This document shows, piece by piece, positions 26,805-64,000 of a DNA stretch of 64,000 bases. The stretch lies in assembly GCA_964510865.1 (NCBI GenBank), contig CAZEDI010000002.1, positions 8,579-72,578 of the forward strand. The letters run 5' to 3'. The DNA is from an uncultured Halobacteriales archaeon. Its GTDB lineage: Archaea; Halobacteriota; Halobacteria; Halobacteriales; Hikarchaeaceae. The notes beneath the pieces were generated by a model. It was not told where the DNA came from, made no database searches, and saw only the letters and a list, made by a program, of their open reading frames with translations. Each line of letters starts with the position of its first letter. The stretch's first letter is position 1. The position numbers and the translations under genes are program-made.

Positions 26805-27240
26805 GCCCGACCACTACACAAGGAGTCACTTGGCTCTTCGTGTGGGAGCAATCGAGCATGCTAGCTCGACAATGTAGAACGGGCAGCCCCTCCGAGTATG
26901 AGCACGCTAGACGGCACCCGGAGGGTGGTGTGGCATGTCAACTGGATCACCCCCCGCGGCCAGATGAAACACAGGAATTATAGGGTAAAGTCTTTCTGAA
27001 GGGGGCTACGATCGCCTCTTTCAGCCTGCATCGCAATGGAACGTCTTCAAGGCTTCAGCGGAATTACCGTACGAAGTAAGAGAGATCGAGCCGGACTCCA
27101 CGACGCCAGCTACCCCGGCGTGATCGGTTTCGATCCAAATCGTCCAAAAATCTTCAAGTAGGGATGGGCCGACACGGGTTTGAACCAAGTCGGTGGTTCC
27201 GGGTCCGGTTTGGGGGTTCTCGAACTGTTCGACTCTCCGG

Positions 27241-28317
27241 TTACAGGATGTCGTGATCATTGGATGGATCCTCCAAGTCCAGGTAGTCCAGGTAGTGTTG
27301 ACGGCGCTGTAGCATGCGCTCGACAGGGCCTTCCTGGTCGTAATGACGCTCGATGACGTCCGGGGTCGCGTTCACTCGCTCGGCAACGATTTCGACCGGG
27401 ATGCCCTTGTTCAGCTGCCAGGTGATCGATCCCGACCGCACCTGGTGGGGCGACCGGGACGATGGGCACTTGCTGGCGTGAGAGTACTCGGTCCACTCGC
27501 AGGTGGGCCGTTCCTTCCCGTGGGGGCAGTCCTCGCGGATACACGGCACCGTTGCCATGTACATCCAGTCGCGGATGGTACCGGTGCTGGGCCGTCCCTG
27601 TTGGGACGTGATCAGGGGCTGTCGTCCGTGATCGTCACGAACGTCGGTACGATGATGCTCGATGTACCGATCGAGCGCGTCGACGTTCTCTTCAGTAAGT
27701 CCGACTGCCCGTTCGCCACGATACTTGTTTTTCAGCGGCGTCCCCGTGTCGGGTCGATGCTGGAAATGGACGAAGCCGATGTCTAGGTCGACGTCACGCA
27801 GATCCAGCGCTCGCAGCCCGCCCATCCGAGCTCCGGTGAACCACGCCATCTCGAGCAGGACCTGTGATCGTTTCCCGAACCACTCGGGATCCTCTCGCAT
27901 GTAGCGAACCTGTGGGACGCCATTCTCTTGCTTGAGCTGCGTCTCATCGACCCAGTCCTCCGCGTCGAGTTCGGGGATCCGAACTGACTCGGCGAGATCG
28001 TCTTCGACGGCGCCGAGTTGCTCCATGTACTCACAGAACTTCCGGAGCGTCCACATCTCGCCCTCCAACGTGGCAGGCTCGATGTCAGCCGCGCGATACT
28101 CGTTGAACTCCACGAGGTCGTATCCTCGGAGATCGCCAGTTACCTCGACTCCGACAGTCTGGCACCACTCGATGAACAGCTTCAGCCGGTAGCGCCAGGT
28201 CTGGATGCTCGAGTCCGAAGCGTCGGCCCGCCTTGCCCGAAGGTAGCGCTCGACGGCGTTGCCGATCGGCAGGTCCCTCGGGTCGTCTGGTCGGTCAGCA
28301 CGCCCTGCCATACTCAC
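27241..28317 (-). CDS. Tyrosine recombinase / phage-type integrase
   Basis: N-terminal SAM-like domain, then the catalytic region with R (GARMGGLRAL), HQVRSGSIT, and ERVNATPDVIERHYD (H-Y). Start is GTG 28317 (GTGA overlap with the upstream stop) or ATG 28311. Confidence 0.9.
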   Translation of the reverse strand: MSMAGRADRPDDPRDLPIGNAVERYLRARRADASDSSIQTWRYRLKLFIEWCQTVGVEVTGDLRGYDLVEFNEYRAADIEPATLEGEMWTLRKFCEYMEQLGAVEDDLAESVRIPELDAEDWVDETQLKQENGVPQVRYMREDPEWFGKRSQVLLEMAWFTGARMGGLRALDLRDVDLDIGFVHFQHRPDTGTPLKNKYRGERAVGLTEENVDALDRYIEHHRTDVRDDHGRQPLITSQQGRPSTGTIRDWMYMATVPCIREDCPHGKERPTCEWTEYSHASKCPSSRSPHQVRSGSITWQLNKGIPVEIVAERVNATPDVIERHYDQEGPVERMLQRRQHYLDYLDLEDPSNDHDIL

Positions 28318-30503
28318 CGGGAACCCTCCGTTCCGCCGTTCGCCAACTTCGCGAGCAGGCGCTCATACGTTTCCTCGACGGTCGCCTCGTCGACGTCGTA
28401 GCCATCGAGTTCGTCGGCGACCAGCTGTCGCGTCGCTGGCTTGATGCTGCCGTCGTTGTTCTTCTGGACGAACCCGGTCTCGACGAGCCCCTTCATCGCG
28501 CTGTAGTGCGTGCTGTTCGGGTTGCCGTCGAGGCCGAGCGCCGACTGCGCCCATTCCTTTTGGCTACTGAGCGTCCGCCCGCGGGACTCGATGTACTTGA
28601 GCAGTTGGAGCTGCCGATCGGAAAGCTGCTCGAAGCGATCGACGACGCGTTCAACAGCTTCCTCCTGGAACTCCTCCAGGATTGCGGCCTGGGGATCAGC
28701 TGACACGTCCGCGTCCCGGTCTCCACTGGAATCGGAGCGGGCCGCCCCCGCATCGGCACGCAACTGCTCGTTCGCCTGGCGAAGCTCCGACACCGTCGCC
28801 TGGAGCTCCGCCACACGCTCGTCCACCACGGCCTCGCTGGGGCCGCCCTCGGGTGCGCTGAGCGGCGCCGCCTCGTACCACGACTGGATGGCCTCGTACT
28901 CTTCCTCGATTTTCTCTGCCTCTTCGACGCGCTCCCTGTAGCCCTGGAGGCGTTCGAGTTCCTGTTCGCTGTCGTCGAGGTCGGCCTCCAGGTCGGTGAC
29001 GCGGGCCTCCTCGGTCTGCAGCTGGTGTTCGAGTTCGCTGATGCGCTCGTTCTTCTGCTCCAGGCGGGCCTGCATCTCCGCGGAGATGTCCTCCTGACCG
29101 CCGCCCTGCAGGCGCTCGGTCAGGAGATCGAGCGTCTCGTCGGCCGTCCGCAGGCGTTCGAGTTCAGCCTCTAACTCCGCGATCTCGGTGTCCTTCTCGT
29201 CGAGTCTCTCCTCGAGGCGCTCGATCTCGCCCCGGCGCTGGGCCTCGCGATCGGAGATCTCCGAAAGCTCCTCGACGAGGTCCTCCCCCACGGACTTGAG
29301 ATCGGGCCGCTCGACGTCCTCCAGGCCGGGAGTAGCGCCGGCGTCGAAGGTCCGCTTGCGATCGAACTGGACGCGCTCGATACCGGCCTCGCTCCAGTCA
29401 CGTGTAAGGAACGCCTCGCCGTCGGCGAGGTCCTGGACGGGATCCTGATACTCCGAACCGAGGATCCGACCCACGACCTTCGTGTCGTTCTCCCAGGTGA
29501 GGCGGTGCCAGACCAGCCAGTTAGCTTGCGTGAGGAAGTCCTTCTTGACGTCCGCGGGGCGCTGGCTCAGCCCGACGATGCCGAGGCCGCGCTTGCGGCC
29601 ACGCTTGCCGATCTGGACGAGTTGCTGGCCGACGTCGTCGAGGCCGCCGCCCTCGGGGACGAACTCGTGAATCTCCTCGACAACCAGGAGGAACGGCTGT
29701 TTCAACTCCTTCTCGCGAACGAACAACGCCTGGGCGGTCGCGCGAACGAGTTCCCGTGCCTCCGTGGCCTGTTCGCCCGGGCCGCCTTCGTCGAGATAGC
29801 CCGAAACGTCGAGGATGATCGGGACGTGTTGCTCCAACGCGAGGGCGGCCAACTTCTCGGCGTGCACGGGGCCGACCTGGACGTCACACTCCGGGTCGGC
29901 GCCGGCGTGCAGGAGCTCGTATTGCTCCTTGAGCCCGTAGTACTCGCCCTCGACGTCGACGACGAGCACGCCGTAACCCGCCGCGAGGAGCTTCTCGACG
30001 ACGACGCTCGCCGTGTTCGACTTCCCGCTTCCACTCTTGCCCAGGATGGCGCCCCGGCCCGTCAGGAGGTCCTCGATCGGCAGCGAGACGGGCTTGCCCT
30101 GGGCCGTCGTCCCGACGGTGATCGCAGTGGTGACCGTCTCGCCACCATCGGTGCGGATATCGGGCGCCTCGGCCTCGGGACAGCATGCCGAGCACGGCCC
30201 GAAGTGCCCACGGAAAACCGACAGCGGCTTCTCGGTCGTTGACCGAGCCCGCGCGAGACGGGGACTGTCCGAGTCGCGGTGATACGTCTTCGAGCCGTAG
30301 GTCCCGGCGGCCCTGGAGACGATGACCATGTCCTCGCCCCCGTCGGTGGCGAGTCGCTGGTCGTGGACCGCCTCCTCGCCGACGAGTTCGGTGTCGGGTG
30401 GTTCGTCGCAGTCGTGAGCGACGAGCCGAGTGATGCTGTCGACGTAGGTATCACAGATTGCGCAGTGGTGCAGGCCACGAACCCGACGGGGTGGTTCAGA
30501 CAC
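28314..30503 (-). CDS. HerA/FtsK-superfamily (DUF87-like) ATPase with N-terminal Cys/His cluster, coiled coil and C-terminal wHTH
   Basis: Walker A GKSGSGKSNT, Walker B FLLVVEEIHEFVP, and LSQRPADV. A long E/L/R-rich heptad region follows, then C-terminal LQLLKYIESRGRTLSSQKEWA. Start set at GTG 30503, which overlaps the upstream stop. The ORF-track N-terminal 82 aa overlap the upstream gene. Confidence 0.8.
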   Translation of the reverse strand: MSEPPRRVRGLHHCAICDTYVDSITRLVAHDCDEPPDTELVGEEAVHDQRLATDGGEDMVIVSRAAGTYGSKTYHRDSDSPRLARARSTTEKPLSVFRGHFGPCSACCPEAEAPDIRTDGGETVTTAITVGTTAQGKPVSLPIEDLLTGRGAILGKSGSGKSNTASVVVEKLLAAGYGVLVVDVEGEYYGLKEQYELLHAGADPECDVQVGPVHAEKLAALALEQHVPIILDVSGYLDEGGPGEQATEARELVRATAQALFVREKELKQPFLLVVEEIHEFVPEGGGLDDVGQQLVQIGKRGRKRGLGIVGLSQRPADVKKDFLTQANWLVWHRLTWENDTKVVGRILGSEYQDPVQDLADGEAFLTRDWSEAGIERVQFDRKRTFDAGATPGLEDVERPDLKSVGEDLVEELSEISDREAQRRGEIERLEERLDEKDTEIAELEAELERLRTADETLDLLTERLQGGGQEDISAEMQARLEQKNERISELEHQLQTEEARVTDLEADLDDSEQELERLQGYRERVEEAEKIEEEYEAIQSWYEAAPLSAPEGGPSEAVVDERVAELQATVSELRQANEQLRADAGAARSDSSGDRDADVSADPQAAILEEFQEEAVERVVDRFEQLSDRQLQLLKYIESRGRTLSSQKEWAQSALGLDGNPNSTHYSAMKGLVETGFVQKNNDGSIKPATRQLVADELDGYDVDEATVEETYERLLAKLANGGTEGSR

Positions 30504-31284
30504 GGCGCACCACCTCCTCGGGATCGACCTTCTCGCAGTGGTTCCCGGCCCGGTCCAGCGGGAACGCCAGCGCCTTGTCGTCGTACTCGCGCTCCCACGG
30601 CGCCATAACGACCCGGTACTCCGTACCATCGGCGTGCTCAATCGTGACACCTGGATCGAGTTCCTCGGTGGAGATACCGAGGGCGATAGTGTCGATGGAC
30701 TCGACGACGCCGTGGGGAACGAACTTAGTCGTAGAACCGGTGTACTCACGCCGTGACGCCTCGATGTCGGACCACCCGGAGCGGGGATCGTACTCAGTCT
30801 CCACGTCCCAGACGTTCCCGCGTCGGCTGGTCGGATCCGCGAGGAGTGTCAGCCCATTCCCGATAATCTCTCCTTCCTCGTGGACTCGAATCCCATCGAT
30901 TTCGGCAACGAGCGTCGTGTCGTCATCGAGTTCTGCCCGGACTGTCTCGCCGACATCGAGGTCCTGCAACTGCGGGTGTCGATTTCCACCCCCGTCGGCT
31001 CTGATAGGCTCACCGAACTCGTCGACGAACTGCCCATCAACAATGTCGTCGACGGATTCCAGTGCCTGGATGCGCCGGTAGGGATTCCGGCTCACTGCGC
31101 CCTGGAACTCCCCGGCACACCACACGCAGTGATCCAGTCCTTGGGCCTCGGCGAATGCCCGTGGCTTTTTCTTGGGATCACCGACGCGACCACACAGTGC
31201 ACCACCGTCGTCCCCGAGGTCGTGATAGACTTCGCCGATGTACCCATTCTTCGAGTGTGCAACAACGATTGGTTCGTCACTCAT
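30496..31284 (-). CDS. Hypothetical protein (element operon)
   Basis: Start at ATG 31284 with an 8-nt overlap (ATGAGTGA) on the upstream gene. Acidic, with Cys pairs ALCGRV / HCVWCAG. Confidence 0.6.
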   Translation of the reverse strand: MSDEPIVVAHSKNGYIGEVYHDLGDDGGALCGRVGDPKKKPRAFAEAQGLDHCVWCAGEFQGAVSRNPYRRIQALESVDDIVDGQFVDEFGEPIRADGGGNRHPQLQDLDVGETVRAELDDDTTLVAEIDGIRVHEEGEIIGNGLTLLADPTSRRGNVWDVETEYDPRSGWSDIEASRREYTGSTTKFVPHGVVESIDTIALGISTEELDPGVTIEHADGTEYRVVMAPWEREYDDKALAFPLDRAGNHCEKVDPEEVVRRV

Positions 31285-31690
31285 CGCGATCACCCCCGAT
31301 CCCGGAGAGCGCGGCTTCGACGGTCTCGCGGTCGAATTCCCGCTCACAGCCGGGCTCCAGGCAGGCGTACTCCCCGTCCCGGAGGTTGCGAAACGGCTCG
31401 TGACCGCAGGGCAGCAGCGTGCCGGCGTCGAGGTTGTGTTTGATCCACTCGTGGACTGCGGTGGGGACCTCGTAGACCCCGACGCGGCGGTCGTCGAGCT
31501 CGGTCTCGCCGACGCGCTCCAGGACGTTTTCTTCGCGGAGCTTCGCGAGGCGGCGCTGGACCTCCGGGGCGAGATCGACGTGGGTGACGCGCTCGCCGGG
31601 TTCCGGGAGTTTGAGCGCGATCGCCCTGTTGTTCGTGAGGTAGCTCGCCGTGGAGTGATAGATGCTGGAGCCCTTGGCGGAACTACTCAT
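31277..31690 (-). CDS. Hypothetical protein with C-terminal Cys/His cluster
   Basis: Start at ATG 31690, overlapping the upstream stop (ATGAGTAG). Contains LPCGHEP...ACLEPGCE. Confidence 0.55.
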   Translation of the reverse strand: MSSSAKGSSIYHSTASYLTNNRAIALKLPEPGERVTHVDLAPEVQRRLAKLREENVLERVGETELDDRRVGVYEVPTAVHEWIKHNLDAGTLLPCGHEPFRNLRDGEYACLEPGCEREFDRETVEAALSGIGGDRDE

Positions 31691-31973
31691 CGTATCCCTC
31701 CAGAATCGTGTCGTAGTGGTCGGTATCGCCCGGTAGCTCTCGGAGGCGGTCGAGGAGTCGGAGCCAGTCCTGGCGCTCCCGGACGTAGACCTGGCCGTTG
31801 TTGAGACGGGCGGCGAGGGTCCGGGAGTCGATCGCCTCGCTCTCGCCGGCCGGGCGATGCGAATAGAACGTCGGGCCCTCGCCGTGCAGGCGAAACTCGT
31901 CACCGGAGCTGCGCTCGACGATCTCGACCGGTGCGGAGCGCTCGACCGGGAAGTCCTCGGGGACCGCACTCAT
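31683..31973 (-). CDS. Hypothetical protein
   Basis: 96-aa acidic ORF whose start overlaps the stop of the upstream gene by 4 nt. Confidence 0.5.
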   Translation of the reverse strand: MSAVPEDFPVERSAPVEIVERSSGDEFRLHGEGPTFYSHRPAGESEAIDSRTLAARLNNGQVYVRERQDWLRLLDRLRELPGDTDHYDTILEGYDE

Positions 31974-32335
31974 GGCTGGCCTCCCGGGGAGTTGTCCGTC
32001 AATACGGATTCCGTGATCTTTCCGTGGGCCACTCCGATTGCGGCCGCACTCTCCTCACCCGGTGCAGACCCTACCCAGTCACCGGAGGGAACCAACTGTG
32101 CCATCTCCTCTTCGAGTGCGTGGATCACCACATCCCATTCTTCCCGTGTCATTTCAACCGCAATCTCGCGGTCCGTACCGCCCGAGGAAGCCCCCTCATC
32201 GAATTCGAGCCGATAGTCACCGTGGTCCCGGTGGTCCATCCAGTCGACCATGTTCACCCACTTTTCACACTCGGCGCACCAGCGCTTGGCCCCGGTTTCG
32301 TCGTACGCGCCGTGGAGACCCTTCTCATCGCTCAT
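31970..32335 (-). CDS. Hypothetical acidic protein with CxxC
   Basis: Start at ATG 32335 (MSDEKGLHGAYDETGAKRWCAECEKW). ATGA overlap with the small ORF upstream. Confidence 0.55.
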   Translation of the reverse strand: MSDEKGLHGAYDETGAKRWCAECEKWVNMVDWMDHRDHGDYRLEFDEGASSGGTDREIAVEMTREEWDVVIHALEEEMAQLVPSGDWVGSAPGEESAAAIGVAHGKITESVLTDNSPGGQP

Positions 32336-32475
32336 GCCGACCACCCCGGTGCCGTCCGGAGTTCGCCACCGATCTGATGGCCACACGGCGCCGCCAGGTG
32401 CGTCGTCGGGCCGGTCGTCGAGATCGCGGTGATCTGCGTCCCGCAGTGGGGGCAGTACTCGGGGCTCCCCGTCAT
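32332..32475 (-). CDS. Small zinc-ribbon-like protein (47 aa), absent from the ORF track
   Basis: Hand translation gives MTGSPEYCPHCGTQITAISTTGPTTHLAAPCGHQIGGELRTAPGWSA. ATGA overlaps occur at both ends (32472-32475 and 32332-32335), filling the only gap in a fully coupled operon. Confidence 0.45.
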   Translation of the reverse strand: MTGSPEYCPHCGTQITAISTTGPTTHLAAPCGHQIGGELRTAPGWSA

Positions 32476-33149
32476 TGGTCCACCTCCCGGGCGGCGGCCT
32501 CGGCGAGCTTCTCACACTGCGTGGCGAGATCGAGCGCCCGCGCATAGCGGTCGTCGGCGTCGTCGGCGAGGGCGCCTCGTTCCAGTAACTGTGTCGCCTT
32601 CGCGTAGAAGTGCGCCGGGCTGTCGAGCGGGTACTGCCCCGGGTTTCGCGCGTTCGGCTCCGGGGGGTCGGGGCGGCCGCCGTCTGCAACGGCATCTCCG
32701 GGTACGTTGCTCAGCTCCATCAGGAGCCGGTTCGCGATATCCGCCGCCTCGGTCCGCGCGACCTGGAGGTCCTCGGCCATGATGGCGTCCTCGAAGTCCT
32801 TCAAGTGAGTCTCGATCGCGTCGATTTGGGCGAGGGGTTCGTCCCGTCGCCACTCGGCGGTCTCGTGCTCGGACTCTTTTTCGTTGATCCGCTCGACCAT
32901 TCGGCGGTCCAGTGTCTGCAGCTCGTAGGCGAGGTCTGCGTAGGGCATCGCCGCCTCCTCGCGACCGCCATCAGGCATCGGGTCAGATGATCGAGACTCT
33001 AAAATTTCCAGCGACAGATCGAACCGGGCGGCTTCGGGCGCCGCCTGGAGCGTGTCAGCGAATGTGTCGAGAAACGCCGCAGCGGCCTGACCAGTTGCCT
33101 GGCCCAGTTCGGCGGGCTCCTCGGTTTCCAGTAACGGTTCGTCCGTCAT
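32472..33149 (-). CDS. Hypothetical acidic helical protein
   Basis: 225-aa ORF with ATGA overlap on the upstream DUF4326 gene. Confidence 0.55.
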   Translation of the reverse strand: MTDEPLLETEEPAELGQATGQAAAAFLDTFADTLQAAPEAARFDLSLEILESRSSDPMPDGGREEAAMPYADLAYELQTLDRRMVERINEKESEHETAEWRRDEPLAQIDAIETHLKDFEDAIMAEDLQVARTEAADIANRLLMELSNVPGDAVADGGRPDPPEPNARNPGQYPLDSPAHFYAKATQLLERGALADDADDRYARALDLATQCEKLAEAAAREVDQ

Positions 33150-33604
33150 TGCTCTCCCTCCCGCACCGGATTATCCAGCCACACGACGCTGCCGTCCTCG
33201 CGGATTGCCACGCCGAGCTGGGTCAGGAACTCCCGAACCTCGGCGCGACCGCCGCGAAGGAAGGCGTCGATCACGTCGAGATGACAGGCGGGTTCTGTGT
33301 CCTCAGCACTGCGACACCAGCAGGCCACGCGCTGCCCGTCGAGGCCGTGAATCGCTCGACGGAACTGCGGATCCATGGCAAGGCGCCCGAGGAAGGTCTT
33401 CGCGAAGCGGGCGATCGCGAGTTCGCGGGGACAGGCGTCCGTGACTTCGTGGGGATTGCCCAGCCAGCCCCGATCGCCGGGGATGGTCGTGCGGACGTTC
33501 GCGCCGTTCGTCCCGCGCCCACCGTAGACGTCGAAGGTGTCCTGGCGGCAGTGCACGACGGCGATGCCTCGCGTCTCGACGGGTTCGGTCTCGGCGGCGC
33601 TCAT
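33146..33604 (-). CDS. DUF4326-domain protein
   Basis: VYGGRG...GWLGNPH...RVACWCRSAEDTEPACHLDVI matches the DUF4326 pattern (GNP ... C-W-C ... CH). Confidence 0.7.
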   Translation of the reverse strand: MSAAETEPVETRGIAVVHCRQDTFDVYGGRGTNGANVRTTIPGDRGWLGNPHEVTDACPRELAIARFAKTFLGRLAMDPQFRRAIHGLDGQRVACWCRSAEDTEPACHLDVIDAFLRGGRAEVREFLTQLGVAIREDGSVVWLDNPVREGEQ

Positions 33605-34092
33605 TCGCCATCACCGTCCTCGGTCCGCTGGTCGTCGATTTCGTAGATCATTTCGCGGTGCTCTGGGATCGAAATCGCGAGCATCCCCTCTTCGAGATCG
33701 CCGTGGAAGTCCCCCGACTCTGGGTAAACGGCGATAATACCGTCGTAGAAGTCGGATTCCGGAAGGCCGTGGGTCGTGGTCTCGAATTCGCCAGTGAGGC
33801 TCGGTGTCCGGACCGTGAACTCCCCAACGAAGCCCTGCAGGAAGTCGGGCATCTCCAGGCCGTTGTCGGTGAGCCGGAGCGTGTCGTCTGGCTCGCGGAC
33901 GGGTCCCGGCTCGCCCTCGGGCTCGAAGGCCTCGTCGGGGTCGGGTGGATTCACGCCTCGACCCTCCCGTATTCGCCGAGGCTGTCGCGCGCGGTCTGCC
34001 AGTCGATGCGTCCTGAGTACGTGGATTTTTGCCCACTCGTGTTGTGTGTCGAAATGGGCGTCGTGTTCAGATTCATTCCCAGGGTCCGGCAC
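33601..34092 (-). CDS. Hypothetical acidic protein, first gene of the integrase-terminated operon
   Basis: 163-aa ORF from ATG 34092. GTG 33954 is an alternative start. ATGA overlap with the DUF4326 gene. Confidence 0.45.
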   Translation of the reverse strand: MPDPGNESEHDAHFDTQHEWAKIHVLRTHRLADRARQPRRIREGRGVNPPDPDEAFEPEGEPGPVREPDDTLRLTDNGLEMPDFLQGFVGEFTVRTPSLTGEFETTTHGLPESDFYDGIIAVYPESGDFHGDLEEGMLAISIPEHREMIYEIDDQRTEDGDGE

Positions 34093-34200: not shown

Positions 34201-34216
34201 ATTTCCACGCGGAAAT
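34201..34216. promoter_or_regulatory. Palindromic operator candidate ATTTCCACGCGGAAAT
   Basis: Perfect 16-bp palindrome upstream of the wHTH gene 34287..34526 in an AT-rich divergent promoter region. A second palindrome, TCCAATTGGA, lies at 34222-34231. Confidence 0.4.
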
Positions 34217-34286
34217 CAGTCTCCAATTGGAATCTAGTTGACAAGACGAAGGTGTTTTGCAATGGCCCTGTGTGTTCCGGAACAAC

Positions 34287-34526
34287 ATGGCTGGTAGGAA
34301 GCCAACTGTAGACGATGTAGACATTTTGAAGCTGTTTGTTTTGTCCAGCGATCCAGCCTTTACAGCGTCTGAGCTTACGGATGAGCTTGATATGAGCCGG
34401 CAGGGAATTTTGAAACGGTTGGATGGATTGGATGAAGATGGGTTCCTTGAGTCGAAGTTTGTCGGCCCCATTCGGATTTTCTGGATAACGGAGAAGGGGA
34501 AGAGGAAGGTCGAAGCGTCGATCTAA
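34287..34526 (+). CDS. Small winged-helix DNA-binding protein
   Basis: MAGRKPTVDDVDILKLF..DPAFTASELTDELDMSRQGILKRLDGLDEDGFLESK..GP.RIFWIT. It is a paralogue of the convergent gene. Start is ATG 34287 (alternative 34257). Confidence 0.65.
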   Translation: MAGRKPTVDDVDILKLFVLSSDPAFTASELTDELDMSRQGILKRLDGLDEDGFLESKFVGPIRIFWITEKGKRKVEASI

Positions 34527-34738
34527 GGGAGCCAGTAGATCACCGATGGCCCCGCCTTTTTGCGTTTTAGCCGTCCCTCTTCGACAAGAGCATTCAACCG
34601 CCGATTCACCGCCTGCCGAGAAATTGGGAGCGATTCGGCAACTTCTTTCGACGACAGAACAGGATCTGCAGAATGCTTGAATTGGCGAAGTATCTTCTCG
34701 TTGGTCACGTCCTTGACTGATTGTGCCATGTTGGACAC
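34523..34738 (-). CDS. Small winged-helix DNA-binding protein (paralogue)
   Basis: KILRQF..SADPVLSSKEVAESLPISRQAVNRRLNALVEEGRLKRKKAGPSVIYWL. Its 3' end overlaps that of the partner gene by 4 nt. Confidence 0.65.
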   Translation of the reverse strand: MSNMAQSVKDVTNEKILRQFKHSADPVLSSKEVAESLPISRQAVNRRLNALVEEGRLKRKKAGPSVIYWLP

Positions 34739-34755
34739 TGTAGTCTTCTATTATA

Positions 34756-34771
34756 TTTTCCGCGTGGAAAA
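34756..34771. promoter_or_regulatory. Palindromic operator candidate TTTTCCGCGTGGAAAA
   Basis: 16-bp palindrome about 18 nt upstream of ATG 34738, next to aatataat (TATA-like on the minus strand). Its core is the reverse complement of the 34201 site (shared TTCCACGCGGAA). Confidence 0.4.
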
Positions 34772-35575: not shown

Positions 35576-35824
35576 TCAGCCCCAGAACCCGTCGCGGTGA
35601 CCCGCGTCGATAACCCGTAACTCGTCCGCTTGCTTGTCCCACTCGATCTCCGCGCGGTAGTCGCCAACGCGGAGCTTGTAGGTGTCTCGCCCAGTGAGCC
35701 CGCTTAAGAAGTGTCCTGGATTGTCCCCTGCGTCTTCGAGCTTCTGCCTGAATCGATTTTCGAGCTTGTCGTTTTGTGACTCCAACCAGTCGTTGACGTC
35801 GGGGTGCAACAACACGTCGGCCAT
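35576..35824 (-). CDS. RelE/ParE-superfamily toxin
   Basis: 82 aa. LTGRDTYKLRVGDYRAEIEWDKQADELRVIDAGHRDGF is a typical RelE/ParE C-terminal pattern. Confidence 0.7.
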   Translation of the reverse strand: MADVLLHPDVNDWLESQNDKLENRFRQKLEDAGDNPGHFLSGLTGRDTYKLRVGDYRAEIEWDKQADELRVIDAGHRDGFWG

Positions 35825-36463: not shown

Positions 36464-36760
36464 TCATGGCAGCTGCACCCGTCCGGCACCGACGTGATCG
36501 AGCGCGGTCCGGGCCCATTCCGGCACGTCCGACATGGGCTCGGTCGGGACGAGACTGCCGTGGTGCGTCCTGAGGAAGGACAGCTCAGCGTCGCCACCCC
36601 GGACGATGACTTCCTCGCTGCCATCGGGCTGGCAAAGCGCGTCGACGCAGACCTCGCTGGCCCCTGCTGGGAGCTCGCAGGTCAGTTTCTCGGCACCGAC
36701 GCGGAACGTAATGCCTGGGCGGTCCTCCAGTGGCGTTGGATCGGGCTTGCCGATTGCCAT
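36464..36760 (-). CDS. Hypothetical protein
   Basis: 98-aa acidic ORF convergent with the previous gene. Confidence 0.4.
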   Translation of the reverse strand: MAIGKPDPTPLEDRPGITFRVGAEKLTCELPAGASEVCVDALCQPDGSEEVIVRGGDAELSFLRTHHGSLVPTEPMSDVPEWARTALDHVGAGRVQLP

Positions 36761-41880: not shown

Positions 41881-41889
41881 CGTTGTCCA

Positions 41890-56950: not shown

Positions 56951-57544
56951 TTAGTCGGCTATCGTCCGGTGGGCCGTCGCCGGGAGATCGACGGGCGTGG
57001 TCTCGGGCTCGGCCAGCGGGTCGGGATCCGGAGGCGCATCGAGGTCGCGCTTCAGCTGGGCATGGAGCACGCCCACGCGGTACTCGACGAGTCCGCATAG
57101 TTCGCTCCAGGCGTCCCGGGCGCCGGTCACCTCGTCGCTACCGGGAATGCCCACCAGGACGACGGGTAACCCGGCGTGCTGGCGTTGAAACTCCCGGATC
57201 CCGGTCGCGATCGAGGCGGCGTTGCGGATCTGCGGGCCCAGCTGGCCGTGTTTGAGATGACAGCCGCTGTAGGCACAGGTGCACAGTGGCTCGTGGCGGG
57301 GCTCGTCGTACGGACTCGCGCTGACATCCGCGCCGGGGCGGGGTTTGTCTGCCTCGCGAGCCAGGTAGGATAGCAGGAAGTCCTGATAGCCGTCGTCGCG
57401 CCGGAGGACGAGATCGCGCTCGGCGCGGATCGCCCGGAGGTGGCGCCGTGCCCACTCCTTCACGTCGGCATCGAGACTCGGCCGCCGGAGCTCCCGCTGG
57501 ACGTCGTCATGAAGTCTGTCGATGTACTGATAGCGCCGCTGCAT
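56951..57544 (-). CDS. Hypothetical soluble protein
   Basis: Start at ATG 57544 (MQRRYQYIDRLHDD...), overlapping the upstream stop (TGATG). The ORF-track N-terminal extension is Arg/Pro-rich. Confidence 0.5.
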   Translation of the reverse strand: MQRRYQYIDRLHDDVQRELRRPSLDADVKEWARRHLRAIRAERDLVLRRDDGYQDFLLSYLAREADKPRPGADVSASPYDEPRHEPLCTCAYSGCHLKHGQLGPQIRNAASIATGIREFQRQHAGLPVVLVGIPGSDEVTGARDAWSELCGLVEYRVGVLHAQLKRDLDAPPDPDPLAEPETTPVDLPATAHRTIAD

Positions 57545-58010: not shown

Positions 58011-58012
58011 GG

Positions 58013-58909
58013 CTATCCACCTCCGAAGAGGCTGCCCAGCCAGTCGGTCATGCCATCCAGGGCGGCCGTGAAGCTGTTCCAGGCGGAGCTGACGTCAGTG
58101 ACGACGCCGCCTCCGCCCGCGCGATACCGGACCGTCGGGGGATCGGGATGCGTGCTCATGAGTAGCGTGTGGTTGTGGCGGTCGAACTGGCAGACCGCTT
58201 GGTCTGCCGGGTCACTGCAGTCGGGGACGTTGATCCAGGACTCGCCGGCCGCCGTGGGATCGCTGTCGTACTGCACGACCGGGTCGGAGGCGTTCACCGG
58301 CAAGCGAACCGTGTCGTTGCCAGCGAGCGCGGCACCGTCGATGTAGCCCCACTCAGCGGCCGGTGGCCCGCCGAGTGAGGGGAGCTCGAAGCCGGTGACG
58401 TTCCCGACCAGATCGCTTGCCCAGCCTTTGGCGCCAAAGAAGCCACCCGAGACCGACGACAGGGCGTAACAGGCCCGCGTGGGCTCGGTGACGGTGAGCG
58501 TCACCGCCGTCATGGACCCGTTGGAAACGGGCTCGAAGGTGGCCGACGGGCCGGTATCGAGGGCGGAGAGCGTGGCCGGGCGGGGCTCGAAGTACGCCTC
58601 CGGGAGATACAGCCGGAGCTGGCGGTCCAGGCCCTCGCGGTAGTCCAGACACAGGAACGTGCGGCCGATGTCGACGTGAAAGCCGTCGATGCCCGCCTCT
58701 GCGCTAGATTCGGCGACCGTCATGCCGAGATCGATTTGCGTGAGGTTGGCCGCGACAACGCCCTCGGTCTCGAAGGTCTCGATGGCGTCGGTGCCGGCGA
58801 GTGGGTGGCGCTCGTCGATCGTGACCAGCGACGGTGCGGCCGCCGCGGTCGCGGTGATGACAATCGCGACGGCAGTTACTCGCACGACCAGGCGCAGGAT
58901 CAGGCTCAT
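58013..58909 (-). CDS. Secreted protein
   Basis: N-terminal signal/anchor MSLILRLVVRVTAVAIVITATAAAAPS with an acidic mature domain. ATGA overlap upstream. Confidence 0.55.
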   Translation of the reverse strand: MSLILRLVVRVTAVAIVITATAAAAPSLVTIDERHPLAGTDAIETFETEGVVAANLTQIDLGMTVAESSAEAGIDGFHVDIGRTFLCLDYREGLDRQLRLYLPEAYFEPRPATLSALDTGPSATFEPVSNGSMTAVTLTVTEPTRACYALSSVSGGFFGAKGWASDLVGNVTGFELPSLGGPPAAEWGYIDGAALAGNDTVRLPVNASDPVVQYDSDPTAAGESWINVPDCSDPADQAVCQFDRHNHTLLMSTHPDPPTVRYRAGGGGVVTDVSSAWNSFTAALDGMTDWLGSLFGGG

Positions 58910-59049
58910 AACACGGTCACCGTGGCTTCACAGATCGGACACTGCAGCACCGTGCGATTCGACTGTGAGAGCGCGAGGACGGGCGGGACGCCACACTCGG
59001 TATTCCCGATCTCCTCGAGGAGCGCTCGGACCCGCTCGCGATCGATCAC
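58906..59049 (-). CDS. Small Cys-containing protein (47 aa)
   Basis: GTG 59049 overlaps the upstream stop (GTGA). Sequence (M)IDRERVRALLEEIGNTECG...LQCPICEATVTVL. Confidence 0.3.
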   Translation of the reverse strand: MIDRERVRALLEEIGNTECGVPPVLALSQSNRTVLQCPICEATVTVL

Positions 59050-59348
59050 GGGTCGACCTCCCAGATCCAGAACCGGCGATTCCAGATATCGCTCGTCGTC
59101 TGGCGAATGTCGTCTGCCAGGTGGATCGAGATCACGATGCCCGCGATCGCCGCGACCAGGGCCATGCCACTCGACAGCGCGGCCACGACCAGCGCGCCGC
59201 CGATCACGATCAGGAGGAGTTGCCAGATCCTGTCGAGAGGTGACTGGCGTATGTGCCGTCGAAACCAGTCCACGACGTACTGCGGGATCGGCGTCGGGAC
59301 GTGATACGGGGGCGTGAGTCGTGCCCAGAGCCACTCGAGTGCAGCCAT
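59046..59348 (-). CDS. Small membrane protein
   Basis: ATG 59348 (MAALEWLWARL...). Hydrophobic core LLLIVIGGALVVAALSSGMALVAAIAGIVISI. Confidence 0.45.
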   Translation of the reverse strand: MAALEWLWARLTPPYHVPTPIPQYVVDWFRRHIRQSPLDRIWQLLLIVIGGALVVAALSSGMALVAAIAGIVISIHLADDIRQTTSDIWNRRFWIWEVDP

Positions 59349-59350
59349 GG

Positions 59351-59710
59351 TCAGGCGCCGAATCCCTCCGAGCGGACGTCCCAGAGCGGCCAATTCCCCG
59401 TCTCGAGGGGCCAGCGCCGGTTCACGGCAGGGATGAACCGCAGCAGGGCGATCGGGAAGGCGATCGCGAAAAACGCCAGCGCGACGGCCGTGAGCAGCGT
59501 AGCTGAGGCGATGATCATGACCGCCGTGAGGGCGATCACACCCGTGAGGTGGCCCGTTCTCGGCGCAAAACCCAATCCTCGTGGAATTGTGTCCCGCGCC
59601 CAGACCAACGTCGAGACGATCGATGGCGGGAGCAAGTCACCGAGCGTGACGGTCGTCGCGGTCACACGGAGGTTCGCGAGTGTCCCGGTGACCTGGCTGC
59701 GCAGGCCCAT
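59351..59710 (-). CDS. Small membrane protein
   Basis: 119 aa with TM segment VIALTAVMIIASATLLTAVALAFFAIAFPIALL. Confidence 0.45.
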   Translation of the reverse strand: MGLRSQVTGTLANLRVTATTVTLGDLLPPSIVSTLVWARDTIPRGLGFAPRTGHLTGVIALTAVMIIASATLLTAVALAFFAIAFPIALLRFIPAVNRRWPLETGNWPLWDVRSEGFGA

Positions 59711-59712
59711 CG

Positions 59713-59919
59713 CTACACCCCCAGCGCCCGTCGGAGCCGCCCACGTGACGTGGCCTCCCCTCCGGACTCGGTATCGGTGCAGGAACAGCAGTCGACGCAG
59801 ACGGCCTTGGTGACGCCCCGGATCTCCTCCAGGTGTTCGCGACCGTCGATGTCGCTGCCGCAGTGCTCACAGCTGCTCATGGCGATCAGTGCATCGCCGT
59901 CGGTAGTGGAGTGTGGCAT
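59713..59919 (-). CDS. Small Cys-rich (zinc-finger-like) protein
   Basis: ATG 59919. Contains SSCEHCGSD...AVCVDCCSC. Confidence 0.35.
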   Translation of the reverse strand: MPHSTTDGDALIAMSSCEHCGSDIDGREHLEEIRGVTKAVCVDCCSCTDTESGGEATSRGRLRRALGV

Positions 59920-60029
59920 GGTTGTTACCCGGTACGACGCCCCGGGCGGGGCGGACGCCCACCGCCGGACTCGAACGCGGCGCGAGGCACCTGCGTGGGC
60001 CGTGGAATCGGTCGGTCCGTGCGTCTCGC

Positions 60030-60188
60030 CTACCCTGTGAGTCGTCGCCAGATCCAGCGCAGCCCGAAGAACGGCAGTAGCACGATCGCGAGGAGCAGCC
60101 GCCCGAACCAGATCCCCGTGGCTTTCAGCGAGCCCCGGAAGAGATCCCACCTCCGGCCGAGCCGCGAGCCGTCTGTCTCAGCGGTCAT
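60030..60188 (-). CDS. Small membrane protein
   Basis: ATG 60188 (MTAETDGSRLG...). TM segment WFGRLLLAIVLLPFFGL. 52 aa. Confidence 0.3.
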   Translation of the reverse strand: MTAETDGSRLGRRWDLFRGSLKATGIWFGRLLLAIVLLPFFGLRWIWRRLTG

Positions 60189-60198
60189 GGCTGTGTTG

Positions 60199-60450
60199 TC
60201 ACCCCATTGACCGCTGCGGGATCGCCTGGAACGAGCCGTCACCCGTGACGGCGTAGTTGCGATTCTCCGCACTCCAGTTGGTCCAGGCGCGGAACCAGGT
60301 CGCGACCGTCCCGCCGGAGTCGAGCCCCTCCGAACCCGTCAGCAGCTGCCAGAGTACGTCCAGCAGCATCCAGAGGAGGCCGACCAACAGCAGGATGAAC
60401 CCGATGACGAAACCCAGCAGGTAGCCCCACAGGAAGGCGGCGATCCGCAT
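60199..60450 (-). CDS. Small two-TM membrane protein
   Basis: ATG 60450 (MRIAAFLWGYLLGFVIGFILLLVGLLWMLLDVLW...). GTG 60474 is the alternative start. Confidence 0.45.
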   Translation of the reverse strand: MRIAAFLWGYLLGFVIGFILLLVGLLWMLLDVLWQLLTGSEGLDSGGTVATWFRAWTNWSAENRNYAVTGDGSFQAIPQRSMG

Positions 60451-60542
60451 GAGGGCCTCCCCGCGCTTGCCCACGGCTCACTCACCTCCCGGCCGCGGGA
60501 CCTGGTCACGGTCACGCCGAGTGGTGCTGGCGCCGGCGGGCA

Positions 60543-61664
60543 TCACGCCACCCCGGACCGTCGCGCTGCGGGTGCGCCGGCGAGGAGCCCCAGGCTCGCG
60601 CCGGCAAGCCCGTCGAACAGGCCACCGCTCCACAGCACTGGGATCGAGTTCGAGATGCCGACCCGGGTGTACTCCCAGAACATCGTGGTGAGCCCGGCGT
60701 TGGCGACGAGCTCGACGTCGACCGCGTCGGCGTCGTCGAAGGAGTCTCCGAGGTTGAACACGATCGCCGTCTCGCCGCCGACGTCCTGCACGACGCCGTG
60801 GGTCGTGTCATCGTCGACGCTGTCCGGCGCGGCCTCGCTGAAGATCGGCACCGGGACCGTGGTGTCGTCCGTCGAGACGATCGCGGCCATGCGCGGGCCC
60901 AGCCGGGAGAGCTGGCTGAGTGACTCTTCGTCCTCGGCGTCCTCGGGCGTGGCGTCGAAGTCGTCGACGACGTCGGTGTCGGAGGCCACGATCACCACGT
61001 CGGTGTCCGAGCCGTTGACCGCGACGTCGTCGTCGCCGGTGCGCTGGATGCGCGTGAAGTCATCCGCGCCGAAGCTACCGATCGAGAAGTTGATTCCGGC
61101 GACGCTGAACTCGGTGTCGACGACTTCGGCAATGCCGTCGTCGTCGGTGTCGTTGGATTCCACGTTCTCGACGGCCGTCGAGTTATCCGACTCGATGTAG
61201 GCCTGGAACACGGTTTCGTTGTTCGGATCCGCGCCGGTGTCGTTGACCATCGTGACGTCGATGGAGACGTTGTCGTTGATCGCTCGCTCGAGATCGGCCA
61301 GGTCGCCGTGGTTGATCGACACGTTGAAGATGCCGTCGTTGTCCGTCGAATTCCAGTCCACCAGGTCCGCACTGGCGTTGGTGTAGACGACGGTCCCCGT
61401 GTCGTTGTGGGCCATGGTGACCTCTGAGGAGTTACTATCCGCCTGGTAGGACAGCACGGTCGCCGTCGAATCGTTCGCGGCGAAACTGTGATTCGCCCCG
61501 ACCGTGGTGCCGTCCTGGAGTTCCGTGCCGGTCGTGACGGCTGCATCGAGCGTGCCGTCGTTGACCGTCGGCGGTGCCGCGCCGGCCCCGCCGAACGCCG
61601 CGCCCATGACCATGACGGTCGCGAGCACGGCGGCGAGCAGTTTCTTGGATCGCGTTGATCGCAT
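60543..61664 (-). CDS. Secreted acidic surface protein with many N-x-S/T sequons and a C-terminal hydrophobic anchor
   Basis: Signal peptide MRSTRSKKLLAAVLATVMVMGAAFGGAGA. The body is D/T/N-rich with repeated NxS/T. The C-terminus is GLAGASLGLLAGAPAARRSG. Confidence 0.65.
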   Translation of the reverse strand: MRSTRSKKLLAAVLATVMVMGAAFGGAGAAPPTVNDGTLDAAVTTGTELQDGTTVGANHSFAANDSTATVLSYQADSNSSEVTMAHNDTGTVVYTNASADLVDWNSTDNDGIFNVSINHGDLADLERAINDNVSIDVTMVNDTGADPNNETVFQAYIESDNSTAVENVESNDTDDDGIAEVVDTEFSVAGINFSIGSFGADDFTRIQRTGDDDVAVNGSDTDVVIVASDTDVVDDFDATPEDAEDEESLSQLSRLGPRMAAIVSTDDTTVPVPIFSEAAPDSVDDDTTHGVVQDVGGETAIVFNLGDSFDDADAVDVELVANAGLTTMFWEYTRVGISNSIPVLWSGGLFDGLAGASLGLLAGAPAARRSGVA

Positions 61665-61788: not shown

Positions 61789-62502
61789 TCACAGCGATCC
61801 CCCCGTGTGGAACCCCAGCGACCGGCGAATCCCGAGGGAGAACGCCGTCAGGGAGAATCCAAACTGGTTGTGACGCCACCAGTGGTCCCGGCCGTCAGCA
61901 CCGGCCATGGTCCAGGGGTTGTAGACCGTCCCCGGCGCCAGGTCGGCCTCCAGGCCGTTCGCGAGCCAGGCGTCGAGCTCGCCGTGGAGGTCCTCGACAT
62001 CGAACAACGAGCCCGTCTCTGTCGTTGCCGAGTAGTGGTGCCAGGGACTGATTACCCGGAGTTTCGGGTGGTCGCCATCCAGCGTCGGGGTGGCTGTCCA
62101 GCCCCGTAGCCAGTGGTATATTGATGCGGCGACGCCCCGGACGTCGCCCGTGTTCTTATCAACAAACGTATATATTGGCTCGCGGTCGCCGTGGTGTGAA
62201 TCGTAGGATGTGACCCCGGTTTGGTGCGTATAGGCCGCGAAGTACACGCAGACGTCGGTGTCGTAGTCCTGCGAGCGGGCGACCCAGCCATACAAGCCGA
62301 AGAACTTCTCGCGATCCTCCTGGGCCATGACCAGCCGGGGTCGATAGCGCTCCAGGCGATCCTGGTCGAACTCCAGCGACACGTGGGCTGGCTGGGCGTC
62401 GGGATGGTCAGCGACAGCAGGCGAACTGGCGATCGCGAGGCCGGCGCCGAGGCTCCCGGCCCCGGCCACGGAGCGGAGAAACGCTCGCCGCGTCGGCGTC
62501 AC
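61789..62502 (-). CDS. Tat-exported protein of unknown function
   Basis: Twin-arginine signal TRRAFLRSVAGAGSLGAGLAIASS. GTG start overlaps the stop of the S8 protease gene (GTGA). Confidence 0.6.
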   Translation of the reverse strand: MTPTRRAFLRSVAGAGSLGAGLAIASSPAVADHPDAQPAHVSLEFDQDRLERYRPRLVMAQEDREKFFGLYGWVARSQDYDTDVCVYFAAYTHQTGVTSYDSHHGDREPIYTFVDKNTGDVRGVAASIYHWLRGWTATPTLDGDHPKLRVISPWHHYSATTETGSLFDVEDLHGELDAWLANGLEADLAPGTVYNPWTMAGADGRDHWWRHNQFGFSLTAFSLGIRRSLGFHTGGSL

Positions 62503-64000
62503 GACCCCAGGCCTCCCAGCCAGCCCTCGGGCTCGAACGCCCGGTAGTAGGCGTCCCGCTGCTCGGCGGCAGCAGTCATGGCCTCGGCCTGGCTCGTCTC
62601 GGGGACCGTCCCGTCGGCCAGGTTGTCCCCGGCGATCATCCCGGCGCCGGCCTCCACGGCGGCGGCGTTGGGCACGAAACGAGCGGTCGCGAGCACGGCG
62701 GCGTGCACCCGGGAGTGATTCCAGCCCGCCAGCGTGCTATTCGCGGCCAGTGCCAGGGCGAGGTTACCGGTCACGATCGGCGCCCCCATCGAGGTCCCCG
62801 ACAGCGTGGAGTTACTGAGGAAGCCCTCCGTCGAGGCGGTCTTCGCGGTGATCTTGAAGCCCGGCGCCACCACGTCGACGTCGGCGCTGCGGCTCTCCAG
62901 GTCCGAGGCGTCCGTCGCGCCCGTATCGGGGCCGGTCTGGCTGAAGTAGGCGCTCCAGGCCGAGCCCGGCGCCGAGCCATTCGTCGCGCCGACTGTAATC
63001 ACGGGCGCGTAGTCCCCGGGCGAGGCGATCCCGGGTGAACGCGTTGCCCGGCTGTTGCCGGCCGCAACCACGACCGCACTGACGCCCTGCTCGTGGGCGT
63101 AGTCGATCGCGTCCGTGAGGGGCTGACTCCAGAGCGGCGAGCCCAGGCTCATCGAGATGAGATCGACGTCCTGGTCTGCGGCGTACCGGATCGCCGCCGC
63201 GATATCCGCCGTGCTGCCCGAGCCGTCGTCTGCAAGCGCTTTCAGGACCAAGAGGTCGGAGTCGGGCGCCATGCCGTCCAGCGCGTCGGTCGAGGCGTTG
63301 GCCGCGATCGCAGCGCTGACCCAGGTGCCGTGGCCGTCGCCATCGGCAATCGCGTCGAAATCGCCGGCCGTCGCGTTGACCGATTCGCCGGTGATGAACG
63401 ACTTGCTCGCGTTGTCGATGCGGATCGAACTGCCGACCGAGCCGTTACCGAAGAGCTGGCCGTCAGCCGTGTTCGTCCCCGTGTCGATGGCGGCGATCGT
63501 GATCCCGGAGCCGGTCGCCGAGACGTTGCTGGCTCCCGTGGCGTCCCGCGAAACCGAGAGATCCGACGCGTTGACGTCCCCATCGAAGGCCAGGCCCTCG
63601 GTCGGGAACTCGGGATCATCGAACGCGAAGAGCCCCTGCTTGGGTGGGTCGAACTCCCCCGCCGTCAGCGGCGAGGTCACGGGATCGACGTCGAGCAGGT
63701 AGTTCGGGTCGATCCGCTCGACGTAGGATCGTTCCGAGAGCAGCGTCGAGAAGGGCGTCGGCAAGCTGATCCCGAAGACCGTCCGGGGGCGGATCTGGCT
63801 CCGAGGGGCTGCCACGACCGCAGTCCCGGAGTCGTTGCGAAGATCGATCAACTGGCGATCCCCGGAGGCGTTCGCCCAGTCCTGGAGTGCCGTGGGCGCA
63901 GTCTCGCCGGCCTCGTAGCTCACGATAAACGAGGGATTGCCGTCGTAGGTCTGGAGATCGGGCGTCGGGGGGTCGTCGTCCCCCAGCGAGAGCGCCGCCG
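62499..64000 (-). CDS. Subtilisin-like serine protease (peptidase S8), 5' end outside the window
   Basis: Catalytic triad motifs AAIDTGTN (D), GHGTWVSAAIA (H) and SGTSMGAPIVTG (S). The reading frame stays open upstream of GTG 63923 to position 64000, and no signal peptide is seen yet, so the gene is truncated by the window. Confidence 0.85.
   Translation of the reverse strand, partial: AALSLGDDDPPTPDLQTYDGNPSFIVSYEAGETAPTALQDWANASGDRQLIDLRNDSGTAVVAAPRSQIRPRTVFGISLPTPFSTLLSERSYVERIDPNYLLDVDPVTSPLTAGEFDPPKQGLFAFDDPEFPTEGLAFDGDVNASDLSVSRDATGASNVSATGSGITIAAIDTGTNTADGQLFGNGSVGSSIRIDNASKSFITGESVNATAGDFDAIADGDGHGTWVSAAIAANASTDALDGMAPDSDLLVLKALADDGSGSTADIAAAIRYAADQDVDLISMSLGSPLWSQPLTDAIDYAHEQGVSAVVVAAGNSRATRSPGIASPGDYAPVITVGATNGSAPGSAWSAYFSQTGPDTGATDASDLESRSADVDVVAPGFKITAKTASTEGFLSNSTLSGTSMGAPIVTGNLALALAANSTLAGWNHSRVHAAVLATARFVPNAAAVEAGAGMIAGDNLADGTVPETSQAEAMTAAAEQRDAYYRAFEPEGWLGGLGS

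Follow-up and report, generated by a model that had tools for sequence, protein, structure and literature searches.

A 64,000-nt stretch of DNA from an uncultured Halobacteriales archaeon of the Hikarchaeaceae (assembly GCA_964510865.1, contig CAZEDI010000002.1, positions 8,579 to 72,578; hereafter the window) probably carries a mosaic plasmid-like element, integrated by a tyrosine recombinase into a tRNA-Ile(GAU) gene of a haloarchaeal replicon with housekeeping genes. The left end of the element is at 27186/27187, and it runs from position 27187 to the end of the window, over at least 37 kb. It consists of a backbone with integrase and replication genes (27.2–38.4 kb), a cargo island (38.4–49.5 kb) and a module (49.9 to >64 kb) that is best described as a diverged, rearranged relative of the core of plasmid pR1SE and of the related plasmids termed apHPVs. 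The G+C content (GC) shifts stepwise at the boundaries of the flank and the blocks, being 60.0% in the flank, 63.8% in the backbone, 45.8% in the island and 67.1% at 49.5–64 kb. The left-flank genes are chromosomal in type, encoding an ABC-2 permease, a histidine kinase, glycoside hydrolase GH67, DUF63, YcaO, FolD, an esterase, an AI-2E transporter, MATE, NadE and glycoside hydrolase GH10. The gene content agrees with the initial annotation, made from the letters alone, which placed housekeeping or catabolic genes on the left and element-like genes on the right. The window looks haloarchaeal, with 60% GC on its left side, chromosomal-type genes there and a single tRNA-Leu(CAA) gene, located in the left flank.

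The reading of an integrated element is based on a tRNA fragment next to the integrase gene, on a near-identical environmental contig where the body of the tRNA occupies that position and on homologous integrases next to the same fragment elsewhere. The left attachment site, attL, is a 22-nt 3′ fragment of tRNA-Ile(GAU), GGTTCAAACCCGTGTCGGCCCA, at 27165–27186 on the minus strand, recognised by its match to contig L092 of the Logan assemblies and by the 3′ ends of metagenomic tRNA genes. The fragment spans the T-loop half and the 3′ acceptor strand of the tRNA; 55 bp separate it from the stop codon of the integrase gene. The 22-nt attachment core has the form GGTTCAAA(C/T)CCGTGTCGGCCCA, with one variable position. 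The 22-mer GGTTCAAATCCGTGTCGGCCCA, from which the window copy differs by one substitution, is present in 54 hypersaline metagenome contigs; of these, 32 were scanned with ARAGORN, and in 26 a tRNA-Ile(gat) gene ends with it at the 3′ side. A search of IMG/VR with the 22-mer gave no match.

A GH10 gene 99% identical to the one at the junction is located on L092 (1,864 bp), and this contig is 99.1% identical to window positions 25341–27186. Past the breakpoint, where its last 18 nt diverge from the window, L092 reads GATAAGGTGGAGGTTCGC, then GGTTCAAATCCGTGTCGGCCCA; after the shared flank it enters the anticodon arm and body of tRNA-Ile, not the integrase gene. Provided that L092 was assembled from 31-mers, as in the Logan pipeline, a 22-nt core could not have produced the L092 path by mis-assembly, and L092 would represent an unoccupied-type junction of a near-identical strain; with 18 nt beyond the breakpoint, this is supportive, not conclusive. 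Integrase homologues with 33–36% identity are located within about 100 bp of the same tRNA-Ile fragment, without a complete tRNA, in three metagenome contigs (L116, L129 and L140); their orientation relative to the fragment is opposite to that in the window. A tRNA fragment beside an integrase is the usual signature of integration, and these data support, at the level of sequence, integration into the 3′ end of a tRNA-Ile(GAU) gene. The integrated element proposed initially is borne out, on firmer evidence than the letters alone had offered; its left limit, then put at about 26.9 kb, is now fixed at 27186/27187. An intact tRNA-Ile gene with a second core copy is predicted past the right end of the window, and no second copy is found inside the window, even when 3–4 mismatches are allowed. 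In having an intact integrase adjoining a short 3′ tRNA fragment as the attachment core, the element is similar to tRNA-targeting archaeal elements with non-split tyrosine integrases of the pNOB8 type; the target here is tRNA-Ile(GAU).

The adjacent genes for an S8 peptidase and an NPP1-like protein in the module pointed to pR1SE. This plasmid of Halorubrum lacusprofundi is transferred in vesicles, without cell contact (Lucking, Alarcon-Schumacher & Erdmann 2023, PMC10818511, citing Erdmann et al. 2017). According to the same study, apHPVs are defined by cluster 1 (ORF6–9) and cluster 2 (ORF17, 21 and 23–25), ORF being open reading frame; ORF25 is a VirB4/HerA-like ATPase with a proposed role in bringing DNA into plasmid vesicles. 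Defence systems adjoin apHPV cores, and no capsid genes are present in apHPVs, even by structure (PMC10818511). For comparison with the module, profiles of the canonical apHPVs CP019329, CP099999 and CP095494 were enriched with pR1SE and other sequences of Table S2 (PMC10818511), which also fixed the ORF numbering. Eleven proteins served for profiles of the sister family described below, and ORF23, ORF24 and ORF17 were scored against profiles including pR1SE.

In cluster 1, homologues of ORF7, ORF8 and ORF9 are found in canonical order, and the ORF6 position would fall beyond base 64000. The ORF7 homologue, an S8 serine peptidase (62499–64000, minus strand; PF00082 at 2e-36; hhalign 100%), has a frame that is open to base 64000 and runs off the window. 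The ORF8 homologue (61789–62502, minus strand, 237 aa) is an NPP1/NEP1-like protein (hhalign 100%; BLASTP 1e-54 to locus L002 and 3e-20 to L003) and has motifs in common with pR1SE ORF8 as given in Table S2. The ORF9 homologue (60543–61664, minus strand, 373 aa) matches L003 positions 17907–18968 (hhalign 99.8%), which correspond to ORF9 of CP019329 in Table S2 of PMC10818511.

In cluster 2, homologues of ORF17, ORF23, ORF24 and ORF25 are present in a rearranged order, the ATPase standing before ORF22–24 and the trio being inverted. The ORF17 homologue (58013–58909, minus strand, 298 aa; hhalign 94.1% over 274 columns) is conserved in the other six sister-family loci, and the homologues of ORF22–24 are syntenic with those loci by BLASTP. 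The trio comprises the ORF22 homologue (49994–50926, plus strand, 310 aa; hhalign 66% to the protein between ORF21 and ORF23, termed ‘ORF22’), the ORF23 homologue (50916–52613, plus strand, 565 aa; hhalign 94.7%) and the ORF24 homologue (52610–54460, plus strand, 616 aa; hhalign 95.5%). For ORF17, ORF23 and ORF24, a single match stands out in each case, and no other exceeds 25% in hhalign. Directly upstream of the ATPase lies a family-specific protein of about 190–197 aa with a Cys motif, PLCTC...C.LK.G (56951–57544, minus strand; start placed by alignment), which is conserved in L001, L084, L088 and L089. An ORF21 homologue was not detected with a 6-sequence profile, and the Cys-motif protein also gave no match to ORF21. 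Small conserved genes, including 59046–59393 and 60199–60474, occupy 59046–60474 on the minus strand and have BLASTP matches in 4–6 sister loci. All module genes are intact ORFs within the window, the ORF7 homologue running off its edge.

Three distinct ATPases of the HerA/FtsK superfamily, as reported in the initial annotation, are present in the element, all with a Walker A motif; ATPase1 and ATPase2 are assigned by DUF87 and by PADLOC HerA matches and ATPase3 by structure and profile. ATPase3 (54659–56947, minus strand; Walker A GPTGNGKS) is a HerA/VirB4-fold ATPase homologous to apHPV ORF25, as judged from AlphaFold2, Foldseek, hhalign and HMMER results. It has no match in Pfam at 0.01, none in PHROG and none by tblastn in 50,697 phage records. 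The AlphaFold2 model, calculated with 47 homologues, has a mean pLDDT of 90.6 and shows a predicted HerA/VirB4 fold. The best Foldseek matches are HerA structures (7wrw at 1.4e-11; also 4d2i, HerA-NurA and HerA-Sir2), with VirB4 weaker (4ag5, 7e-7). A viral structure library yields matches to HerA-like proteins, to a conjugal transfer protein and to the packaging ATPase of the sphaerolipovirus PH1 (1.2e-6). A weak similarity in the motif RExRK...Q.PS links ATPase3 to a DUF87 structure. The comparison with ORF25 gives 96–97% in hhalign over about 460–510 columns, including the N-terminal helical domain; ATPase1 and ATPase2 reach 14–22% against ATPase3 over short stretches, and the three ATPases are not close to one another.

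In an exhaustive HMMER search of 1.84 billion proteins, only 177 match the ATPase3 profile at E<=1e-3. Canonical ORF25 proteins, 35–49% identical to that of CP019329, are among these matches with whole-library E-values of 1e-8 to 7e-7. An explanation of the likeness by generic HerA similarity was rejected, given the 14–22% of the ATPase1 and ATPase2 controls and the small fraction of the library retrieved. In the same HMMER search, ATPases of about 500–550 aa (P0279–P0332), including a second ORF25-like paralogue in CP019329 (L003 3586–5253), bridge the ATPase3 and ORF25 families.

A tblastn search with ATPase3 finds four circular haloarchaeal plasmids of 39–76 kb with a common gene order: genes for a large secreted protein, an S8 peptidase and proteins of about 255 and 350 aa are followed by one for a protein of about 300 aa with small ORFs on either side, then by those for an ATPase of about 740 aa and for three proteins of about 320, 530 and 650 aa. 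Eleven syntenic families are shared, according to BLASTP, by the window, these four plasmids, a 318-kb contig of Halovenus aranensis (L088) and Logan contig L089. Among the relatives of ATPase3 for which genomic context is available, the one on L089 is closest, at 60% identity, and L089 shares the convergent arrangement of the window. ATPase3 is 29–41% identical to its counterparts in the group of CP026314, CP040639, CP019330 and FNFC01000002; a megablast search of the element against plasmids gave no match. The relatives of the module are mostly located on circular plasmids of 39–76 kb. A conserved chromosomal setting for this gene block, with no repeats at its sides, had been named in advance as speaking against a mobile element and is not what the relatives show. 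The exception is the 318-kb Halovenus contig, the flanks of which were looked at within 10 kb.

Table S3 of PMC10818511 lists four of these replicons as ‘incomplete’ pR1SE-like elements with three of six hidden Markov models (HMMs) each: CP026314 of Salinigranum rubrum, CP040639 of Natrinema pallidum (pNPA70), CP019330 of Natronorubrum daqingense and FNFC01000002 of Halovenus aranensis. There, a ‘complete’ element has at least five of the six published HMMs (ORF6, 8, 17, 21, 23 and 24), and ‘incomplete’ means that only cluster 1 is present (PMC10818511). The element in the window would likewise score as ‘incomplete’ in this screen. In comparison with pR1SE and the canonical apHPVs, it has homologues of ORF7, ORF8, ORF9, ORF17, ORF22–24 and ORF25, the cluster 1 order ORF7–9, Orc1/Cdc6, an integrase and adjacent defence cargo. 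However, the similarity outside ORF7 and ORF8 is seen only with profiles, the ATPase is not at the cluster end, and the Cys-motif protein precedes the ATPase instead of an ORF21 homologue being found. The ‘incomplete’ elements examined are best regarded as a sister lineage that has diverged but has nearly all of the core, and in which the ATPase has moved ahead of the ORF22–24 trio. Three of them are circular plasmids of 39–71 kb and FNFC01000002 is a 318-kb contig, whereas the window copy is tRNA-integrated. Their integrases are unrelated to that of the window at the BLAST level, and the trio is inverted in the window, as in L089, but not in these elements.

In three of the four sister-type plasmids (L001, L002 and L084), a pair of genes for an AAA+ ATPase and a VWA-domain protein is located between the HerA-like ATPase and the ORF22–24 trio; this pair is missing in the window, L085, L088 and L089. 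The related plasmid CP135527 has the pair. Natronorubrum daqingense JX313 contains a canonical apHPV on CP019329 (L003) and a sister-type element on CP019330 (L085); both lineages thus occur in one cell.

The integration of apHPVs into host replicons and their defence cargo have already been described. What is new is the precise tRNA-Ile attachment site, the recognition of the ‘incomplete’ elements as a rearranged sister lineage and the link of that lineage with a rare NurA-HerA cassette. A wider interpretation is tentative and somewhat doubtful: several ‘incomplete’ elements (four were examined) and about 95 ATPase3-type clusters at 50% identity might, rather than being remnants, form a second complete lineage of self-disseminating haloarchaeal plasmids, with its own rearranged DNA-loading module (ATPase3, the ORF22–24 homologues and the Cys-motif protein), tRNA-Ile-integrated forms and vesicle-borne defence islands. 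Spread in self-encoded vesicles has been shown for no plasmid other than pR1SE, and the 41 complete members known so far make for a small family. Many elements were set aside as incomplete; if these hold a full diverged gene set, the pool of candidate vesicle-transferred plasmids would grow substantially. They would also offer a natural comparison for essential genes, with ORF7–9, 17 and 22–25 conserved, ORF21 replaceable and gene order flexible. With a precise tRNA-Ile attachment site and an intact integrase, tests of excision and of the circular junction are straightforward.

A life cycle of the element can be proposed by analogy with pR1SE and with HerA/FtsK ATPases at large, comprising excision, replication by Orc1, vesicle formation and a role for each ATPase. 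The integrase would excise the element as a circle, and Orc1/Cdc6 would replicate the episomal circle. The proteins of ORF7–9 and ORF17 might build or decorate plasmid-containing membrane vesicles, as in pR1SE. ATPase3, as a putative hexameric DNA translocase of the HerA/VirB4 type, would load the excised circle into these vesicles together with the ORF22–24 proteins.

Several observations weigh against the interpretation as one integrated pR1SE-like element. L092 reaches just 18 nt past the breakpoint, which makes the evidence for an empty site thin, and the window stops short of the right end, with its intact tRNA and second attachment core. An ORF21 homologue is missing from the matches, the ORF6 position is off the window and the ORF22 match, at 66%, is weak. 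The gene order, with the ATPase ahead of the ORF22–24 trio and the trio inverted here and in L089, is unlike that of canonical apHPVs. ATPase1 and most of the genes at 27–38 kb are missing from the sister-type plasmids, and the element is consequently a mosaic that could have been assembled in several steps. Finally, dissemination in self-encoded vesicles is documented for pR1SE alone, a plasmid outside the sister lineage.

The mosaic composition could also mean that the region is a tandem or nested array of independent elements, with a small integrative plasmid (27–38 kb), an island of its own and the decayed remains of a pR1SE-like element, which are no longer mobile as a unit. The three compositional blocks and the lack of ATPase1 and its neighbours in the sister-type plasmids are in line with such an array; in addition, the integrase of the four plasmids is near the ORF24-like gene, unlike that of the window, and the low-GC cassette is found beside an integrase fragment elsewhere. 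The chance that this is correct is nevertheless small. There is no second attachment core in the window, even at four mismatches, and repeats flanking the low-GC island are absent beyond one 20-nt pair (38056 and 49784), which lies inside orc1 and is at chance level. The module genes are all intact ORFs, and the Orc1/Cdc6 protein is 44.7% identical to Cdc6 of the sister-type plasmid of Salinigranum rubrum. Canonical apHPV plasmids, too, have ATPase1-like genes and defence islands by their cores. Over 30 haloarchaeal plasmids encode a ‘DUF87 domain-containing protein’ with 57–72% identity to the ATPase domain of ATPase1; the canonical apHPVs CP019329 and pHALXA03 (NC_015659) are among them and have the gene outside the apHPV core. 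Since ATPase1-like genes occur on apHPV plasmids, the presence of an ATPase1-like and an ORF25-like ATPase on one replicon is not unusual.

It is also unlikely that the module encodes a conjugation or mating-type apparatus for DNA transfer, making the region an archaeal integrative and conjugative element (ICE) with ATPase3 as a VirB4/TraG-like motor. The fold of ATPase3 does match VirB4 and a ‘conjugal transfer protein’, homologues of ORF23 resemble the N domains of secretion-system pilus proteins (PMC10818511), and in relatives the genes on the sides of the module include some for proteins with a type IV pilin N-terminal domain. The best fold matches, however, are to HerA rather than VirB4, and Pfam detects no relaxase, VirD4 or other type IV secretion system (T4SS) families in the module, which does not place it among conjugative ICEs of the T4SS type. 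Moreover, pR1SE, the sole experimentally studied relative, is transferred in vesicles without cell contact (PMC10818511). The ‘transfer-like operons’ of the initial annotation were therefore right in spirit; they correspond to a diverged pR1SE/apHPV module and not to a recognisable conjugation system.

A decidedly improbable arrangement is that the whole window belongs to an 86-kb apHPV-type plasmid or minichromosome, whose left 27 kb are captured host DNA carried as cargo. Derivatives of pR1SE are reported to capture host DNA, the source contig is only 86,290 bp long, and NadE, which lacks a close haloarchaeal relative (at most 49% identity), suggests that at least part of the flank was horizontally acquired. 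The tRNA 3′ fragment by the integrase is, by contrast, a signature of an integration junction, and the 99.1%-identical L092 joins the flank to a tRNA body. FolD, tRNA-Leu(CAA) and transporters are located in the flank at a uniform 60% GC. Were the replicon a secondary one, the element would be no less integrated. It is highly improbable that the element is a provirus packaged by ATPase3 or ATPase1: ATPase1 matches the PHROG terminase large subunit (8.7e-21) and the ATPase3 fold resembles the PH1 packaging ATPase, but ATPase3 is without matches in the phage records and PHROG, no capsid-like Pfam matches were obtained and apHPVs are without capsid genes (PMC10818511).

The backbone of the integrated element begins with the tyrosine integrase (27241–28317, minus strand), an intact protein of 358 aa (PF00589 at 1.1e-7; phrog_1 integrase at 2e-19). 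Its identity is 49% with the integrase of an 18-kb plasmid of Haloarcula marina and 42% with that of Natronomonas PL23. The start of its gene is overlapped by the gene of ATPase1 (28314–30503, minus strand), a HerA-like DUF87 protein with a long coiled coil (DUF87 at 5e-14; PADLOC HerA at 4e-24). The coiled-coil matches cover residues 411–652, and the Walker A motif is GKSGSGKS. Five further genes at 30496–34092 on the minus strand encode proteins of 283, 96 and 225 aa, a DUF4326 protein (33146–33604) and a protein of 163 aa; only DUF4326 has a Pfam match (1e-12), and none of the five has a homologue in the compared plasmids.

Two convergent, overlapping genes for winged helix–turn–helix regulators follow (34257–34526 on the plus strand and 34523–34738 on the minus strand), both with Pfam matches to helix–turn–helix families. 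Within the region 34203–34769, an inverted-repeat and pattern search with one mismatch allowed found near-palindromic TTCCACGCGGAAA sites at 34203–34216 and 34756–34769, in inverted orientation, 20–40 nt upstream of each regulator gene. These sites are probably operators. A weak ParE/RelE-like toxin gene (35576–35824, minus strand; PF05016 at 9.6e-4) scores under the curated cut-off. The Orc1/Cdc6 replication initiator (37368–38366, minus strand) has the AAA_22 and Cdc6_lid domains. The integrase, DUF4326, the winged helix–turn–helix regulators and Orc1/Cdc6 named in the initial annotation are all recovered by Pfam. The motif CACGGAA(ACGA) occurs three times at 36797–36983, in a non-coding stretch (36760–37015) near orc1; the copies presumably resemble archaeal origin-recognition boxes.

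The low-GC island (38431–49500), delimited by GC and characterised with Pfam and PADLOC, fits the ‘cargo island’ of the initial annotation and carries genes of defence or repair type. NurA (38765–40048, plus strand; PF09376, 33.1 bits against a cut-off of 21) is followed by ATPase2, a HerA-like protein (40045–41880, plus strand; DUF87 at 7e-6; PADLOC HerA at 5e-19; Walker A GASGQGKT). The two genes are co-oriented and adjacent, overlap by 4 nt (40045–40048) and constitute a HerA-NurA pair. A Myb/Trm1-like, methyltransferase-like gene (41890–42900, minus strand) and a Y-family polymerase gene (42973–44196, minus strand) complete the cassette. All four genes recur in the same order, with 54–64% identity, by an integrase fragment on metagenome contigs L148 and L149 from JGI, and the NurA-HerA-methyltransferase-like trio recurs on L150, a contig of 40% GC, with 29–33% identity; the NurA-HerA pair is kept in L148 and L150. 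HerA proteins of the ATPase2 type are rare, with 14 clusters at E<=1e-10. PADLOC gives partial matches only on the cassette (HerA ‘type III coevolved’, mad8 and a weak mad2), with no complete known system.

Being of HerA type and translationally coupled to a NurA-domain protein, ATPase2 is similar to the HerA-NurA end-resection complexes and to the HerA defence systems HerA-Sir2 (‘Nezha’), HerA-DUF4297 and MADS. It differs in its setting, a low-GC mobile island where the neighbours of the pair are a methyltransferase-like gene and a Y-family polymerase gene instead of Mre11-Rad50. The cassette may represent an undescribed defence or repair system. Further along the island, a HAD-type PDC-S34 gene (47055–47906, minus strand) is a PADLOC candidate defence gene, matching at 6.5e-63 over its full length. 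The copy in the window documents how such elements can move the rare NurA-HerA-methyltransferase-like-polymerase cassette and defence genes into a chromosome.

In the flank, the NAD synthetase gene nadE (24552–25493) has a product with at most 49% identity to any relative among the GTDB species representatives, the best matches being mostly from Methanosarcina. A search with NadE for a syntenic relative with an empty site found none among these representatives. Its similarities suggest a horizontally acquired or lineage-poor gene in a chromosomal flank. The flank also contains a GH67 α-glucuronidase gene (5618–7708) and a GH10 xylanase gene (25518–26804), which together suggest that the host is a xylan-degrading haloarchaeon.

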